DNA of 64,000 nt from an uncultured Chloroflexia bacterium (GTDB lineage: Bacteria; Chloroflexota; Limnocylindria; Limnocylindrales; CSP1-4): the NCBI GenBank assembly GCA_963752475.1, contig CAVVYR010000032.1:1-64000 (forward strand). Direction: 5' to 3'. This document shows positions 10,141-16,461 of the stretch, one piece after another (position 1 is the stretch's first letter; every line of letters starts with the position of its first letter). The notes below the pieces were generated by a model. It saw only the letters and a program-made list of their open reading frames with translations. It was not told where the DNA came from and ran no database searches. The translations under genes and the position numbers were made by a program.

Positions 10141-10371
10141 GGCGCTGTCGACGGTGCCGTCGTGGACGAAGCGGCTGTATGGGGCGGTGGAGATGACGCG
10201 GATGTCATCGCCCTCGCTCTCGACCGCGAGCCCGTCGTGGAGCCGCCCGGTCCGATAGGCCTGCTCGCGGACGATAGCCCGGGCATCGTCGAGGACGGCT
10301 TCGTCGAGCTGGGCCTCGATCCGTCGGCCGACCGCGCGGATGACGCGTTCGTCGAGCGTGAGGGTGCTCAT
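10141..10371 (-). pseudogene. HK97 gp10-like neck protein, N-terminal part (inverted)
   Basis: MSTLTLDE...YRTGRLHDGL...TAPYSRFVHDGT matches the gp10 RTG.L...Y..FV..GT pattern. Confidence 0.7.
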
Positions 10372-10375
10372 GGCG

Positions 10376-10823
10376 TCACCCGGTCGCTGATGCGCACCGG
10401 CACGCTCGTCGAGCCCGTCTGCGGCTGGAGGTCGCGAAGCGGCGGAGGAGCGGCGGCGGGGCGTCGCGCAGGTAGCGGCGGAGGAGCGCGCGGCCGGTGT
10501 CGACGGCGGCGCCCGCCTGGCTCCGTCCATCGCCGATGCCGCGCTCGCTGTCGGGCACGAGCGCACGGCGGACGGCCTCGATGAGATACCGCTTGACGGC
10601 CGCGGTGTCGTCGGGCGTGGACGTGATGGCGACGACGTCGCCCCAGGGGCCCGCGACCCGCTCGACCGAGCCGCCAGGGCGGCCACGGCCGTCGGCGATC
10701 AGGCGCACGTCGCCTGCTGCGAGCGCGACGCCGTCGCTCGTGACCGTGACCGTCGTGGCGAAGCGTCGGAGCGTGAGCGGTCCGTCGTGGCCAGCGGGAT
10801 ACAGCGTGTCGGTCGCCGAAGCC
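10376..10823 (-). pseudogene. Head-tail connector-like protein fragment (inverted, start missing)
   Basis: Open frame directly upstream of gp10-like gene (LRRFATTVTVTSDG...VAITST); assignment mainly positional. Confidence 0.45.
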
Positions 10824-10882
10824 GTGCCCTTCCTCCGTCAGGCGGCGACCCGCATCGGGTCACGCGCAGAGGAGGTCGTCCG

Positions 10883-11329
10883 ATGATCGACCTCACGGGC
10901 TCGGTCCTCGTGCGCACCCGCGACCACGCGCCGATCGCCGCGCTCTGTGCCAGCCGCGTGGGCACAGAGGACCGCGGCAAGGCCTGGCGCGCGCCGATGG
11001 TCATCTGCGTCGACGAGGGCGCCAGCCGCTCGCCCGGCGCGGGTCGTGCAGCCAACGCGCGCATCGGCCTGCAGGTCCACACGTTCGCCTTCCGCTGCTA
11101 CGGCCAGGACCGCGCGCAGGCAGCGCAGCTCGCACGGCTCGTCTCGGACCTCTGGCACGAGTGCGGCGTCGTCGAGGGCACCGGCGACCCGCCGGTCCTC
11201 ATCCGCAACGGCTGGGCCGACCTTGTCGCCAAGCCCATCGAGGACCCGGGGCTCAAGCGGCCCTATGCCACCTGCTACGTCGACGTCCTCGGGGGTGCCG
11301 AGCCCAAGGGCGTGATGCCGATGACCTGA
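10883..11329 (+). CDS. Phage tail terminator/completion-like protein
   Basis: About 148 aa, FRCYGQDRAQAAQLARLV; directly precedes the tail tube. Confidence 0.6.
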   Translation: MIDLTGSVLVRTRDHAPIAALCASRVGTEDRGKAWRAPMVICVDEGASRSPGAGRAANARIGLQVHTFAFRCYGQDRAQAAQLARLVSDLWHECGVVEGTGDPPVLIRNGWADLVAKPIEDPGLKRPYATCYVDVLGGAEPKGVMPMT

Positions 11330-11417: not shown

Positions 11418-11957
11418 ATGCCTGCCATCCCGGTCGACTCCTGGTACATCGGTGCCGGCGACATCTACCTCGATGCCGTCAAGATCGGCGCGACCCGCGA
11501 GAACAACGTCTTCCGCATCAGTCGCGAGCTCGACGCGGGCATCATGAACGGCATCGGCGGCAAGCTCGCGCGCACCGACTACTACATCCGTCGCCCGTAT
11601 CCTGTGCTCGAGTTCAGCTTCGCCGAGTTCAGCGCCACGAGCTTCCCGCTCATCGTGCCCGGCGCCATCGCGGCACCAGATGGGTCGGTACCCGACGACA
11701 TCATCATCAGCCCGCCGGCGGTCCGTCGGCTCGGGGCCGACGCCTATCACGAGTGGGAGCTACGGGTCCCTGGTGTGGACGGCAAGGACGTCGCGCTCGT
11801 CGTCCCACTCGGCATCAACGTCAACGACGCCGAGTTCACCGCCGCCGATACCGCCGACCCGACGGTCGTGCGCATGATGATCGAGGGCCGCTTCGACCCC
11901 GACGACGACACCGCCCCCGCCTGGACCATCCGCCTCGTCGGCGCGGCCGCCTCCTGA
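11418..11957 (+). CDS. Major tail (tube) protein
   Basis: IGAGDIYLD..KIGATR N-terminus typical of siphovirus tube proteins; SD AAAGGAG; position in the module. Confidence 0.75.
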   Translation: MPAIPVDSWYIGAGDIYLDAVKIGATRENNVFRISRELDAGIMNGIGGKLARTDYYIRRPYPVLEFSFAEFSATSFPLIVPGAIAAPDGSVPDDIIISPPAVRRLGADAYHEWELRVPGVDGKDVALVVPLGINVNDAEFTAADTADPTVVRMMIEGRFDPDDDTAPAWTIRLVGAAAS

Positions 11958-12556
11958 TGTCCGAGGAGCGGACCGAGGCCGAGGCCCTACGGCAGGTCCT
12001 CACGGTCAGCGTCGGCGGCGAGCCCGTCGCGCTGCGCACGCTCACCATCGACGAGTCCGACGCCTGGCTGCGCCGGCTCACCGGAGCCGTCGATGTCGAG
12101 CTCGGCGAGGCCGAGGGCGATGCCGACACGCTCGCGCGGATGCTCGCCCTGCCCGCCCAGGCGGCCCTTGACCTGGTCGCCGCATACGACCTTGACGGTG
12201 CCCTCGGCGATGCAGACAGCCTCCGCACCCGGATGACGAAGCGCGAGCTCCACGACGCGCTGGAGGCGATGGCGGATGCCGAGGACCCTTTCGGGGAGGG
12301 CGCCGCCCGTTTGGCGGCCGAGGTGTTTGGGGCACCGTCGCGCTTCCTCGCGGCGATGACGAGCCTCGTGCTCGACGGGCTGGCGTCACCGACGGCGCCA
12401 TCGCCGAATGGTGCCTCCACGCCTGGGGCCTCGACTGGAGCCGCGACATCCGACCCCGCTGGAGCCGCGAGCGCTTCCTCGTCTGCTGGACGTACGGCCA
12501 CGAGCGGGAGCGAGCGGAAGCGGCGGAGCGGCGCGAAGCGATCGCGGACGGGGTGA
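11957..12556 (+). CDS. Tail assembly chaperone (gpG-like)
   Basis: TGATG coupling to the tube gene; slippery heptamer C CCT TTC at 12286-12292. Confidence 0.7.
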   Translation: MSEERTEAEALRQVLTVSVGGEPVALRTLTIDESDAWLRRLTGAVDVELGEAEGDADTLARMLALPAQAALDLVAAYDLDGALGDADSLRTRMTKRELHDALEAMADAEDPFGEGAARLAAEVFGAPSRFLAAMTSLVLDGLASPTAPSPNGASTPGASTGAATSDPAGAASASSSAGRTATSGSERKRRSGAKRSRTG

Positions 12557-12730
12557 GGGAGGGCTACGCCGAGGTGCACGTCGATGCGGGGCTCTGGTCG
12601 GGCCATCCCCGCCGCTGGTGGCGGGATACCGATGCTGCTCCCGAACGCCAGGGGCTCAGCGGCCAAGCGCTCGTGGACTGGGTGACTGCCATGGCCGCGA
12701 AGTACCCCGACAACGTGCGGGTCGAGCTAG
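12286..12730 (+). CDS. gpT-like -1 frameshift extension of the tail chaperone
   Basis: -1 frame is open from the slippery site through EWCLHAWGLDW...GVREGYAEV...MAAKYPDNVRV. As written it runs to 12921, but the duplicate at 14955 suggests the original stop was TAG 12728-12730. Confidence 0.65.
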
Positions 12731-12800
12731 ATGGGCCTCCTGCATCTGTCGATGGCAGACCGTTCAGAGCGCCGCGGGCGGTCGAGGCGGCGCGATGGGG

Positions 12801-13355
12801 TTACTCGGCTGGTGGCATGACCCACTCGGGCGGCTGCCAGGAGCCGGAACACCACGCCCGTCGCCTCCCAGACATGCCCCGGTCGCGCTCCATCCACAGC
12901 ATCGCAGACAGACCTTCATAGCCGCCCTCACCGGAGAAGAAGTTCACGTAGTAGTTCCCGATGAAGGCGCGGGGACGGGCGTGAAGCCACGGAACTCTGC
13001 GCTCCAGGAGCCGTCGTCGTTTGGACAGGACCCCCCGGCCGGTCCGGGCCCGTCGAGTGTCGACGTCCTGGTGGTACTGGTTCGTCCATAGGCCGCTCAA
13101 TCGTGGGTCATCCACGTCCACGGTCAAGGTCCAGCCGTAGTTCAGTGTGACCGCACGACCGGCGGCACACCACGTGTCACGGTCGAAGGGCTGGTTCGGA
13201 GTCCCCACCCTGACGATGCCGGAGACGCTCGCTGGTGCCCGCATGTCGACCTCGGAGGTCGCCCCGTCGTCCTGCGCCGTCATAGCCGCCCCAGCCAGGA
13301 CGGATGCGAGCACTGCGATAGAGACGCCCGCCAACGACATCCTCAACGTTCGCAT
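12801..13355 (-). CDS. Cassette 1: secreted protein (DPRLSG / GxGxYEG family), possibly with compensating internal frameshifts
   Basis: Signal peptide MRTLRMSLAG...AMTAQ, DDPRLSG, GEGGYEG; SD GGGAGG. Confidence 0.75.
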   Translation of the reverse strand: MRTLRMSLAGVSIAVLASVLAGAAMTAQDDGATSEVDMRAPASVSGIVRVGTPNQPFDRDTWCAAGRAVTLNYGWTLTVDVDDPRLSGLWTNQYHQDVDTRRARTGRGVLSKRRRLLERRVPWLHARPRAFIGNYYVNFFSGEGGYEGLSAMLWMERDRGMSGRRRAWCSGSWQPPEWVMPPAE

Positions 13356-13374
13356 GACATCCCCTCCCACATGC

Positions 13375-13450
13375 GCGGGCCTGGTTCGCCAGTGGCTCGG
13401 CGCGGCCCAGGCGGCCATGCTCAGCAGGCCGCGCGTCGTGGCCTCCCGCT
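13375..13450 (-). ncRNA. c-di-GMP-II-like riboswitch, copy 1
   Basis: GCGGG-AGGC-CACGAC-GCGCGGCC-loop(CGCC)-GGCCGCGC-CGAGCC-ACTGGCG-AACCAGG-CCCGC fits P1, P2, kink-turn, P3 and pseudoknot. Confidence 0.8.
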
Positions 13451-13538
13451 ACCGATGATTCTCTCGCGGGCGTCCAGCGATGGCGGGCCCCGCGATCGAC
13501 GCCTGACCCGGCAGGCTAGCCCAGGCGGCGCGATGGGG

Positions 13539-14098
13539 CTACTCCGTGGGTGCCTCGAGCTCCGGTCCCATCAGGGGCGGGCCCCCGTAGATGGCGCCAT
13601 GGAAGCTCGTTCCGTCATCGAACGTCCCGCTGGTGTGCTGAAAGACGAGGTCGGCCCCTTGAGCCCCCCGTGCCGGGGCATGTGCCGATGATGAGGAAGC
13701 CATCGTGCTCCACCGCGGAAGTCGTCTGGTCGATCCGTGTGCAGTCCCAGCGCGCCATCCGGGACCATCGAGGCACGGGTCCCGCGGAGGATGCAGAACG
13801 CCTGCTCCGCGCCCATCCGTAGCAGTCCTCGTCGTAGGATGGTTCTGCCAACTCCCGCCGACGCGGGCATCGCTCATACGTGTTCTCGCACGGGCGACGG
13901 GCGTCACGGGAGAAGGCGCCCCAGTCCTGTCGGTCCACAGAGGACAGCGTGCGCGCGCCACGCGGTCTCGTGCCCGGTGAGGAGGGTCACCCCGGCCGGC
14001 GCTTCTTCCACGGCCTCCTGCGCCAGGGCTGGAACTCCACCGAGTGCCAGGCACATCACCATGACCGTCCCTGCCAGGGACACCCGCAACGTCCTCAT
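13539..14098 (-). pseudogene. Cassette 2: secreted paralog, frameshifted
   Basis: MRTLRVSLAGTV...ALAQE in one frame; MSDARVGG and GAIYGGPPLMGPELEAPTE in another. Confidence 0.75.
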
Positions 14099-14118
14099 GA
14101 GCGACCCTCCTTGCATCG

Positions 14119-14194
14119 GCGGGTCGGGTTCGCCAGTGGCTCGGCGCGGTCCAGGCGGCCATCGTCAGCAGGCCGCACGTCATCGCCTCCCGCT
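14119..14194 (-). ncRNA. c-di-GMP-II-like riboswitch, copy 2
   Basis: GCGGGAGGCGATGACGTGCGGCC...GGACCGCGCCGAGCCACTGGCGAACCCGACCCGC. Confidence 0.8.
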
Positions 14195-14291
14195 ACCGAT
14201 GATTCTCGCGCGGGCGTCCACCGCTGAGGCGCATCGCGACGGTGAAGAAAGGCGCGTGAGCGCCGCAGGCAGCCGAGGCAGCGCAGTGAAG

Positions 14292-14825
14292 TCAGTCGGC
14301 GGCAGTGAGCGGCAAGGTCGTGCCCCACGGCGGCGGCGGACCCTCGTAGAGGATACCCGCGGCTTTCCCCGACGGGTCCATGAAGTCAGGGACGTGGAAC
14401 CAGTACGTCCAACCCTCGTATTGCCCAGTGCCCTCCATGACGCCCCACCCGGGCAGACCGGTCCGGGCCTCATCTGCCACCGAGCCATAGGTGCCGACCC
14501 ACGTGCCATCCGGTCCATCGATCTCGGTGGCACCCCAGAGCATGCAGATGTGGCCCCCTGGATCCTTCAGGCAGAACTGCTCGGTCTCGCTCTTGGCGGC
14601 GCCGCTGAGCCGTGGGTCGCTCATCACGCTCACGCACTGGGCGGAGAAGAGGTGGAGTTCGACGGCATCGTCTTCCTGCACGGTGCGCCCTGGGGCTTCA
14701 TCACACTGGATCGTGCCGGTGACGTATACGCCGCCAGGTGCCTCCTGCGCCAGCACCACGCTCCCGACTCCGCCGAGCAACACCAGGATGACCGTCCCGA
14801 CCAGGGACAGCCGCAACGTACGCAT
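14292..14825 (-). CDS. Cassette 3: secreted paralog, intact
   Basis: MRTLRLSLVGTV...VLAQE, SDPRLSG, GPDGTWVG, GTGQYEG, GILYEGPPPPW. Confidence 0.85.
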   Translation of the reverse strand: MRTLRLSLVGTVILVLLGGVGSVVLAQEAPGGVYVTGTIQCDEAPGRTVQEDDAVELHLFSAQCVSVMSDPRLSGAAKSETEQFCLKDPGGHICMLWGATEIDGPDGTWVGTYGSVADEARTGLPGWGVMEGTGQYEGWTYWFHVPDFMDPSGKAAGILYEGPPPPWGTTLPLTAAD

Positions 14826-14847
14826 GAGCGTTCCCCCCTTCGCATGT

Positions 14848-14923
14848 GCGGGTCGGGTTCGCCAGTGGTTCGGCGCGGCCCAGGCGGCCATCGTCAGCAG
14901 GCCGCGCGTCGTCGCCTCCCGCT
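14848..14923 (-). ncRNA. c-di-GMP-II-like riboswitch, copy 3
   Basis: GCGGGAGGCGACGACGCGCGGCC...GGGCCGCGCCGAACCACTGGCGAACCCGACCCGC. Confidence 0.8.
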
Positions 14924-14954
14924 ACCGAAGATTCTCTCGCGGTCGTCCAGCGCG

Positions 14955-15065
14955 ATGGCCGCCAAGTACCCCGACAACGTGCGGGTGAGCTAGATGCGCT
15001 CCGTGCGCACGTCGATGACAGACCGATCGGGCCCTGTAGGCAGCCGGAGCTCCGCGAGGGCGCTA
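14955..15065 (+). repeat. Diverged duplicate of the gpT 3' end and spacer (first copy at 12691-12803)
   Basis: ATGGCCGC(G/C)AAGTACCCCGACAACGTGCGGGT(C)GAGCTAGATG...GTCGATG(G/A)CAGACCG present at both sites. Confidence 0.9.
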
Positions 15066-15602
15066 CTCGGCGGGAGTGAGCGGCAGTGTCTTCCCCCACG
15101 GTGGCGGCGGACCTTGATAGAGGATGCCCGCCTCCGGGGAGGATGGGGCCATCAGGTCGGGGATGTGGTACCAGTACGTCCAGCCTTCGTATGCCCCGGT
15201 GCCCTCCACGACCCCCCAGCTGGGCAGCCCGGTCCGGGATGGCTCATCCACGTAGCCAAAGGTACCGACCCAAGTGCCATCCGGTCCGGTGATTTCGACC
15301 GTACCCCAGCCCAGGCAGCCGTGGCCCGCGTCCTCCTTGAGGCAGCGACCCAACTGCTGGGCGTCGTAGACACCGGTGCCGCTGAGCCGTGGGTCGCTGC
15401 TCGTGAGCGTGCATTCATTGCGGATGAGATGGAGTTCGACGGCATCGTCCACCTGCACGGTGCGCCCGGGGGCTTCATTGCAGAGGCCGGTGCCGGTGAC
15501 GTAAGTATCACCAGGAGCCTCCTGAGCCGTGACCGCGAGGCCCGCTCCACCGAGCAGCATCAGGGTGACCGTCCCGACCAGGAACAGCCGCAACGTACGC
15601 AT
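15063..15602 (-). CDS. Cassette 4: secreted paralog, intact
   Basis: MRTLRLFLVGTV...VTAQE, SDPRLSG, GPDGTWVG, GTGAYEG, GILYQGPPPPW; close paralog of cassette 3. Confidence 0.85.
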   Translation of the reverse strand: MRTLRLFLVGTVTLMLLGGAGLAVTAQEAPGDTYVTGTGLCNEAPGRTVQVDDAVELHLIRNECTLTSSDPRLSGTGVYDAQQLGRCLKEDAGHGCLGWGTVEITGPDGTWVGTFGYVDEPSRTGLPSWGVVEGTGAYEGWTYWYHIPDLMAPSSPEAGILYQGPPPPWGKTLPLTPAE

Positions 15603-15624
15603 GGAATGTTCCCCCTTCACCAGC

Positions 15625-15700
15625 GCGGGCCGGTTCCGCCAGTGGCTCGGCGCGGTCCAGGCGGCCATCGTCAGCAGACCGCGCGTCATCGCCTCCCGCT
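15625..15700 (-). ncRNA. c-di-GMP-II-like riboswitch, copy 4
   Basis: P3 GCGCGGTC/GACCGCGC is a compensatory variant of GCGCGGCC/GGCCGCGC in copies 1 and 3. Confidence 0.82.
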
Positions 15701-15751
15701 ACCGATGATTCTCTCGCGGGCGTCCAGCAGCTTCCGCGGGAGGGGCTGCTG

Positions 15752-16079
15752 ATGGCCGCCTCGCTCGTCGGCCAGCTCGCCCTCGCGGTCAAAGGCGACC
15801 TCGAACGCTTCCGCGCCGACCTGCGCTCCCAGGCCCCGCGCATCGGCGACGAGGTGGGCACGACGCTCGGTGCCCGCATCAAGGCGCGGCTGTCGGCGGC
15901 GAACATCGGCACGGCGGTGGGCGCCACGCTCGGTGGGCTCGGCGTCGGGGCCCTGCGTATCGCCGACGACTACAAGGCCGCGGTCGACGCCATCCGCGTC
16001 GGCACCGGTGCCACGGGCGAGGCGCTCGAGGGTCTGGAGGCGAGCTTCGGGCGCGTGGCCGGGCGGGTGCGCGAGGACC

Positions 16080-16080
<1 letters not shown>
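15752..16080 (+). pseudogene. Tape measure protein, N-terminal fragment
   Basis: MAASLVGQLALAVKGD...IRVGTGATGEALEGLEASF resembles TMP N-termini; follows the chaperone; abruptly truncated. Confidence 0.75.

Positions 16081-16461
<381 letters not shown>

Follow-up and report, generated by a model that had tools for sequence, protein, structure and literature searches.

Why do four riboswitch-led genes for secreted proteins stand in tandem between two phage tail genes, and do they belong to the phage or to its host? The question is raised by positions 12731-15751 (approximately) of a 64,000-nucleotide (nt) stretch of bacterial DNA, here called the window, which is part of contig C32 of a metagenome-assembled genome (MAG; 4.25 Mb in 38 contigs, 88.8% complete, 5.8% estimated contamination, 68% G+C). 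Homologues of the window's proteins are labeled Candidatus Limnocylindrales, and the records of related MAGs are those of uncultured Chloroflexia. The four units run head to tail on the minus strand. The answer that we consider probable is that the array is an outpost of a host regulon, lodged in the gap between the chaperone and tape measure genes of a dead HK97-like siphophage and built of autonomous cassettes, of which units 3 and 4 are intact.

Anatomy of the array

Repeat analysis detected a 126-nt leader block four times on the minus strand, at spacings of 744, 729 and 777 nt, in cassettes of 729-777 bp (coordinates in Table 1). Each unit contains one full-length Rfam aptamer, and the same parts follow one another in all four: the block TGGACG.CCGCG.GAGAAT, which ends 7 nt upstream of the aptamer; 13-16 nt between the end of the aptamer and the ATG, holding a G-rich Shine-Dalgarno site; a gene that begins with MRTLR and continues into a hydrophobic stretch ending in A-Q, a Sec-type signal peptide pattern that can be written MRTLRLSL...AQ; and, directly after the stop codon, an element of about 40 nt. 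A preliminary description of the locus had reported four repeat units with their own leaders and genes, antisense to the phage genes and placed between the chaperone and tape measure genes, each with a promoter-like GAGAAT block, a Shine-Dalgarno site, a signal-peptide gene and a conserved 3' flank. All of these features were recovered in the four units, and the phage genes on either side were recognized by PHROG matches and by frames visible in the G+C content of third codon positions (GC3). Two of its measurements required correction: the structured RNA given as 76 nt is an aptamer of 87 nt, and the leaders called nearly identical share 80-85% identity pairwise. Among the payloads, unit 1 belongs to a separate subfamily (nearest copy C8:579568-580255, 67% nt identity), and units 3 and 4 are 66% identical in protein; in unit 2 the signal peptide frame stops after 64 codons. 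The long plus-strand open reading frames (ORFs) over 12408-15752, for example 13737-14993 (418 aa), have a non-coding GC3 pattern and are antisense artefacts of the high G+C content.

The aptamers belong to variant c-di-GMP-II families

The aptamers of units 1, 2 and 3 matched the Rfam model RF03170 (c-di-GMP-II-GCG, c-di-GMP being cyclic di-GMP) with 59.5, 64.5 and 61.8 bits, and that of unit 4 matched RF03169 (c-di-GMP-II-GAG) with 65.3 bits, all above the gathering scores of 47.9 and 40 bits, respectively. Since the E-values range from 2.5e-8 to 9.2e-11, these are not chance matches. They run end to end (model positions 1-85/86) and, like their families, the aptamers lie in a 5' leader directly before the Shine-Dalgarno site. 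They are thus members of the GCG and GAG variant families of the c-di-GMP-II clan. Against the canonical c-di-GMP-II model RF01786, in contrast, they scored 51.0, 46.0, 41.4 and 40.3 bits, each below the cut-off of 53.5 bits, which only one of 32 matches reaches genome-wide. The assignment to c-di-GMP-II riboswitches made in the preliminary description is therefore borne out by the variant models but not by the canonical one, and the gating by c-di-GMP that it derived from them is unproven, because the aptamers fail the canonical cut-off and match the variants only.

In those parts of the literature that were available to us, the GCG and GAG variants appear just as entries in lists of models, and no established ligand for them was found. 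Weinberg and colleagues are said to have separated these variants in 2017 because their ligand-contacting bases differ, leaving the ligand open, a different signaling molecule being possible. The genome has seven GGDEF and three EAL domain matches, and c-di-GMP remains a candidate because these enzymes are present; the ligand may be c-di-GMP or a related nucleotide signal. The c-di-GMP-I model gave no match in the genome and was likewise silent in the control genomes, so that this search is uninformative. The contig of the array also carries a GGDEF gene, outside the window (C32:76118-76585), and on C1 a GGDEF and an EAL gene (C1:143523-143969 and C1:149795-150487) are found 3-9 kb from the riboswitch-led gene C1:140450.

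A regulon of the host lineage

The preliminary description had presented the architecture as special to a prophage, and had proposed a search for the leader across the genome and related MAGs. The search gave a different picture. RF03170 matched 35 sites in the genome, 33 of them over the cut-off, which is the highest copy number of any genome examined. Same-strand clusters hold 29 of the 35 aptamers: 11 within 21.6 kb on C8, four on C14, the four of the window, two pairs on C7 and one pair each on C1, C29 and C31. Beyond this genome, the aptamer occurs in 23 of 24 genus members, in 1-31 copies, and in 62 of 100 family members, representing 36 of 49 genera (61 of 99 genomes when the unpublished genome G082 is set aside); it was found in none of the 16 genomes of a second family, which are small. 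The other arrays stand among ordinary chromosomal genes, with a DDE transposase within that of C8, an IS110 transposase next to that of C31, and genes for sigma factors of the extracytoplasmic function (ECF) type directly adjoining those of C14 and C29 (C14:5616-6461 and C29:236688-237479; loci L036 and L039).

Most of the genes behind these leaders encode secreted proteins with an MRTLRLSL-type N-terminus, many of them one- or two-domain paralogues of the array payloads. The same N-terminus is found on a BD-FAE esterase, and the aptamer also stands upstream of two SRPBCC proteins. The G+C content of the array (68.4%) is at the level of the genome and of the window (68.5%), whereas the phage flanks reach 72.0% and 71.6%. 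Orthologues of unit 4 (84-86% nt identity) occur in two other MAGs (L031 and L032), with their own aptamers, matching 3' elements and non-phage surroundings. The cassette is therefore a host feature and not an invention of the phage, and the array is probably a local outpost of a regulon of the host lineage.

Two cassettes on C7 (C7:511452-512120 and C7:514253-514921) are 98.5% identical in protein and each lies beside an RTX-repeat gene, an indication that about 2.8 kb were duplicated recently and that the family is still expanding. At the loci of the relatives (L032 19704-19838 and L031 17431-17544), a c-di-AMP riboswitch adjoins a cluster of five tRNA genes, and an ALIL pseudoknot, a frameshift element of IS3, lies near the cassettes.

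In the literature searched, the GCG and GAG variants are riboswitch candidates without a proven ligand. A regulon of 35 copies, in a family most of whose genera carry the aptamer, provides a defined set for guessing and testing that ligand, its content being secreted barrels of the DUF3224/allene oxide cyclase type, SRPBCC proteins and an esterase. A much bolder view can be taken of the same data: the variant aptamer would sense a signal other than c-di-GMP and govern a family-wide, fast-expanding regulon of secreted barrels that bind small molecules, and the leader, the MRTLR signal peptide and the 3' hairpin would form a mobile module that is grafted onto barrels, esterase and SRPBCC proteins, moves by recombination at its conserved ends and can be captured by phages as signal-gated cargo. 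We regard this extension as rather unlikely.

Entry and growth of the array

The array starts directly after the -1 frame of the chaperone and ends where the tape measure gene begins. Units 3 and 4 are separated by X', which repeats the final 40 nt of the chaperone frame; that stretch, X, is absent elsewhere in the genome. X' is followed by 37 nt and a 3' element, which likewise match the stretch below unit 1, the match as a whole being 76.8% over 125 nt. The pattern is explained by a tandem duplication of X plus cassette after the first insertion, and shows growth of the array in place. One cassette, ancestral to unit 4, would have entered the gap, and a tandem duplication would then have carried the 40 nt of the chaperone end along. 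Because unit 1 is nearest to a C8 cassette and not to units 3 and 4, recombination with other family members must have contributed as well; such exchange with paralogues would have brought in members of other subfamilies. The idea of an expandable array is borne out to the extent that growth in place can be read from the chaperone copy. X and X' together form a datable scar that records how a cassette spreads and multiplies.

The first entry could have been into a free phage, as a true moron, or into a resident prophage, and could have come before or after integration. In either case, cassettes can land within a phage operon, which is one way in which morons may arise.

Expression control

The proposed order of a cassette is a -10-like GAGAAT, a transcript start that would fall at the aptamer, the 87-nt aptamer, the Shine-Dalgarno site, an AUG with the signal peptide, the barrel, the stop codon and a hairpin rich in G+C. 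In the genome, GA[GC]AAT was located by script 6-9 nt upstream of the aptamer in 28 of 35 leaders, and by eye in two more of the aligned leaders. The conserved TGGAC...GAGAAT block is unlike any sigma-70 spacing, and a dedicated sigma factor is therefore possible. A second conserved spacer, GGCGACGACCAGACCAAACCCGCTATTCATGGCGATT, occurs 35-60 nt upstream of many leaders, in C8:566000-600000 (for example 578298, 579384, 587973, 590872 and 593035) and at C29:239412.

A profile of the 3' element, built from the four flanks, found about 25 copies in the genome at E < 0.5, nearly all within riboswitch arrays. Its core is CGAGTA(A/G)CCCCATCGCGCCGCCTCGGCTGCC, and its hairpin takes one of two forms according to the downstream sequence, GCGCCGC/GCGGCGC or CGCCGCC/GGCGGCG; it is therefore the hairpin rather than one fixed sequence that has been kept. 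A T-rich tail follows only the unit 3 copy, which is also the one terminator-like site in the array. The element probably acts as a terminator or a stabilizer.

A terminator scan of the array found no terminator-like site between aptamer and start codon. The gap of 13-16 nt is too short for a terminator stem, which is why the switch would act on translation initiation, through the access of ribosomes or the stability of the RNA. Many leaders have GCAUG following the aptamer's P1 helix, complementary to CAUGCG around the start codon, and duplexes between the post-P1 bases and the start region averaged -8.4 kcal/mol over 32 leaders, compared with -6.3 (sd 2.8) for the shuffled segment. In the model that we somewhat favor, the expression platform is an ON switch: with P1 open the post-P1 bases would pair with the start region, and the ligand, by closing P1, would release it. 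If true, this would explain why ATGCG, the start in 26 of 35 leaders, is kept across unrelated payloads. When the leaders were folded to minimum free energy, no alternative structure recurred consistently among them.

A possible hairpin, CUGUCCC-UGGUC-GGGACGG, was noticed in codons 6-12 of units 3 and 4 (window 14790-14810 and 15565-15585; LSLVGTV). The leaders C7:512036 and C7:514838 have GCCCC...GGGGC at the matching place, a change that looks compensatory; the hairpin may reflect a constraint at the RNA level or codon conservation only.

Integrity of the units and alternative explanations

Units 3 and 4 have full-length frames, all motifs of the payload family and high GC3. The comparison of substitution rates that the preliminary description had suggested was made between them and gave 0.243 nonsynonymous (dN) and 0.467 synonymous (dS) substitutions per site, a dN/dS of 0.52 and hence mild constraint only. 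The frame of unit 1 is open over 184 codons, and in comparison with its intact C8 paralogue it carries indels of 5, 8, 2, 2 and 3 nt and has the conserved NDGGSW..GFTP motif in another frame. Beyond the 64 codons of the unit 2 signal peptide frame the GC3 signal is blurred. Units 3 and 4 look functional, whereas units 1 and 2 are decaying as assembled. Contig pieces of set X1 differ from the window by 10-12 gap positions in unit 1, but by 0-1 letters in the tape measure gene and in units 3 and 4. Outside X1, parts of unit 2 are hardly covered by contigs, and most joints are cross-matches of paralogues. The unit 4 orthologue L032 10001-10560 is frameshifted after about 120 codons, whereas that of L031 is intact; the L032 frameshift may be an assembly indel, which bears on the trust to be placed in those of units 1 and 2. 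A dN/dS value against the L032 copy was discarded on account of its frameshift. The earlier statement that the cassettes were retained while the phage decayed thus fits units 3 and 4, but not units 1 and 2 with their frameshifts, nor the aptamers of units 1 and 3, which are altered at positions that are otherwise invariant.

Several observations weigh against the host-outpost reading. The unit 1 aptamer carries A in place of a C shared by 31 of 31 other genome copies, the unit 3 aptamer carries A in place of a G that is equally invariant (again 31 of 31), and in unit 2 a C-G pair of P2 is weakened to U-G, so that the whole array may be under relaxed constraint. A scan with the sigma-70 consensus found no promoter within the array, and we infer alike the presence of a promoter, termination at the hairpin and the direction of the switch. 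Covariation specific to the pairing partners was not seen (cognate duplexes -8.39, non-cognate -8.28 kcal/mol); swapped partners score alike because the start region hardly varies. The frameshifts of units 1 and 2 may be real decay or assembly indels. Finally, none of the listed contig pieces spans the junction between the unit 4 leader and the tape measure gene with 31 nt on each side, which is no evidence against the junction, since short-read contigs break at the repeated leader.

The alternative to be considered first is that of a true phage moron array. Morons are autonomous transcription units that lie between the morphogenesis genes of phages, and here the cassettes would have been captured from an earlier host, carried as cargo of lysogenic conversion and expanded for the benefit of the lysogen. 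The placement is moron-like: the array is exactly intergenic between two tail genes that would normally be adjacent, antisense, equipped with its own leaders and 3' hairpins, and host-like in G+C within a phage of higher G+C. Three contigs of set X4 join the chaperone stop to the tape measure start, linking 14991 to 15753 across 4 nt, a hint of how a cassette-free phage may look, albeit a weak one, as the shorter side measures just 28 nt. In set X2, a contig piece that starts at 15728 and diverges from the window by 6% contains the 24 unique nt before the tape measure start, and coverage of the right junction extends no further than these. In keeping with the preliminary description, each unit is a self-contained cassette led by an aptamer of the c-di-GMP-II clan. 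However, the same cassettes form larger arrays in the ordinary chromosome, and the cargo, unlike that of a moron, is a multi-copy unit of a host regulon, in tandem and antisense within a phage remnant. Half of the units, as assembled, are broken. A related phage contig carrying a cassette did not turn up: in the viral_contigs collection, the tail protein had no relative and a 23-nt X motif no exact match, and metagenome contigs stop before the junction, the related contig L041 by 13 nt. We regard a true moron array as unlikely.

On a further view, which is quite improbable, all four cassettes are junk in decay: recombination would have copied them into a dead prophage, none would still be regulated or of use, and units 3 and 4 would simply be the youngest. 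It would account for the frameshifts of units 1 and 2, for the mild constraint between units 3 and 4, for the inversion and truncation of the surrounding phage and for the deviations that every one of the four aptamers shows from columns of at least 90% conservation, units 1 and 3 at invariant positions, units 2 and 4 just at columns conserved at 94-97%; in unit 4 the difference lies in the stretch GGCG(G/A)A(A/C)CC, where the GAG and GCG consensus lines diverge. Against this stand the full frames, complete motifs and high GC3 of units 3 and 4, the 65.3 bits of the unit 4 aptamer and its conserved orthologues, and the expectation that, at a dS of 0.47, an unconstrained frame of 540 nt would have gained stops or indels. 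Should the ligand prove to be plain c-di-GMP and the array prove to be decaying, the locus would be an ordinary case of paralogue expansion.

The preliminary description had also asked whether reads span the array or an assembly chimera had produced it. Pieces of X1 span 12605-12912, from the chaperone end into unit 1, and 14839-15187, from the unit 3 aptamer across X' to the 3' end of unit 4, the latter with one mismatch to the window; they support the left junction and the X' junction, and the right junction is the one left unbridged. That cassettes were collapsed or mis-joined into a phage contig is very improbable, since a mis-join would hardly yield X', a diverged copy of phage sequence inside the array, even though the cassettes are repeats that break short-read contigs, several arrays (C14, C31) lie at contig ends, and the MAG has its estimated contamination.

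The payload protein

A profile built from 68 family members is matched over its full length by units 3 and 4, with 243 and 230 bits. The family has 3032 cluster representatives at E <= 1e-3 and 1763 at E <= 1e-10 in a profile search, occurs in single- and double-domain forms, and keeps D70, R72, W111, G134 and G140 invariant, together with a DPRLSG motif and four cysteines. It is very large and yet without a curated model: Pfam gave no family at E <= 0.01 for units 1-4, NCBIfam none at E <= 1 for unit 4, and no PHROG model was matched by units 1, 3 and 4.

In the AlphaFold (AF2) model of unit 4 (predicted local distance difference test, pLDDT, 83.4; predicted template modeling score, pTM, 0.74), an N-terminal helix is followed by a barrel of strands. 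VIA-align placed it closest to the DUF3224 structures 2q03 (Z 14.0, root mean square deviation 2.5 Å over 123 residues) and 2ooj (Z 12.8), followed by the pyocyanin demethylase PodA (5k21, Z 11.9), the Diels-Alderases 8of7 (Z 11.1) and 7dvi (Z 10.8), allene oxide cyclase (1z8k, Z 9.9) and a dirigent protein (5lal, Z 9.6). Foldseek was consistent, with AbyU and allene oxide cyclase as best matches. The payload is thus modeled as a secreted eight-stranded barrel of about 150 residues, of the DUF3224, allene oxide cyclase and Diels-Alderase type. It shares this fold with the DUF3224, PodA, AbyU-type Diels-Alderase, allene oxide cyclase and dirigent barrels, but differs from them in its sequence (9-16% identity to the structural matches, no Pfam match), its secretion, its four cysteines and its DPRLSG motif. 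At most, it can be predicted to be a disulfide-bonded secreted barrel that binds or converts small molecules, as the shared fold does not give the function.

Comparison with other arrays

Integron cassettes are promoterless and end in attC sites with a GTTRRRY core. The units of the window resemble them as same-strand, one-gene units of about 0.75 kb with a structured element after each gene, but every unit has its own leader and the 3' element contains no GTTRRRY (its reverse strand reads GTTACTC), features that do not match an integron cassette array; no integrase was seen, though no search aimed at one was made. Tandem riboswitches carry two or three aptamers in a single leader ahead of a single gene (Sherlock et al. 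2022, PMC9481103). The likeness is that aptamers of the same class are grouped closely on one strand, and the difference that each aptamer of the array has its own promoter-like block, gene and 3' hairpin. A literature search with the variant names, Chloroflexi, orphan riboswitches and the combination of moron, riboswitch and prophage found no description of such arrays in the material available.

The phage remnant

The phage is a real HK97-like siphophage, now a wreck of 6 kb. This assignment follows from the related sequence L042 (86% identical), in which an HK97-type capsid gene (PF05065, 1.3e-20) and a gp10-like gene stand upstream of the matching tail genes, from the PHROG matches and from the frames of a G/GT pair. 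The inverted fragment at 10143-10814 is matched in reversed orientation by L042 3379-4018 (79%), and the L042 homologue of the gp10-like gene matches PF04883. The major-tail-like gene has no family match and was found in none of 100 other family genomes and none of 48 other genus genomes.

Table 1. Features of the array and of the phage remnant around it (window coordinates; E, E-value)
Feature	Position	Strand	Details
HK97 gp10-like neck gene, truncated	10149-10347	-	In inverted phage fragment 10143..10814; phrog_5, E 5.5e-7; GC3
Tail terminator-like gene	10787..11329	+	phrog_123, E 1.1e-5; GC3; collinear with L042 at 86%
Putative major tail protein	11418..11957	+	179 codons; named by position only; 13 unannotated homologues; GC3
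G/GT-like tail assembly chaperone pair	11957..12730	+	G frame from 11957; slippery CCCTTTC 12286-12292
X	12688..12727	+	3' end of chaperone T frame; parent or copy of X'; repeat 94% over 35 nt
Unit 1	12731..13495	-	3' element 12767-12809; ORF 12801-13355; aptamer 13369-13455; GAGAAT block 13458-13476
Unit 1 ORF	12801-13355	-	184 aa; frameshifted relative to payload family
Unit 2	13496..14239	-	3' element 13505-13547; aptamer 14113-14199; block 14202-14220; broken gene
Unit 2 signal peptide frame	13904-14098	-	Stop after 64 codons; remainder weakly family-like, in another frame
Unit 3	14240..14968	-	3' element 14258-14300; intact gene 14292-14825 (177 aa); aptamer 14842-14928; block 14931-14949; terminator-like hairpin 14251-14264
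X'	14952..14991	+	Duplicated chaperone 3' end, ...AMAAKYPDNVRVS then stop; between units 3 and 4
Unit 4	14992..15751	-	3' element 15029-15071; intact gene 15063-15602 (179 aa); aptamer 15619-15705; block 15708-15726; best preserved of the four; abuts tape measure start codon
Tape measure N-terminus, truncated	15752..16060	+	About 100 codons; phrog_991, E 1.5e-5; phrog_1272, E 2.6e-4
C-terminal fragment, another frame, fused to tape measure stub	16047..16406	+	GC3
tRNA-Pro (CGG)	16385..16461	-	Edge of phage remnant

The GC3 frame of the tape measure gene ends near 16050. The fragment fused to it (16047-16406) had no match in Pfam, NCBIfam or a phage tblastn search, and its interpretation as the C-terminus of a serine recombinase found no support in these three. 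When the tail protein, the stub of the tape measure gene and the fragment 16110-16403 were compared by tblastn with 50,697 phage records, no match was obtained, and no att-like repeat of the tRNA end was found.

The chaperone genes, which lie between the putative major tail and tape measure genes, are best described as a G/GT pair with a predicted frameshift at CCCTTTC. The -1 frame continues to about 12730 and ends in ...AMAAKYPDNVRV, and the GC3 signal switches frame near 12320-12380. The metagenome contig L041, 88% identical in nucleotide sequence, keeps the heptamer and both chaperone frames.

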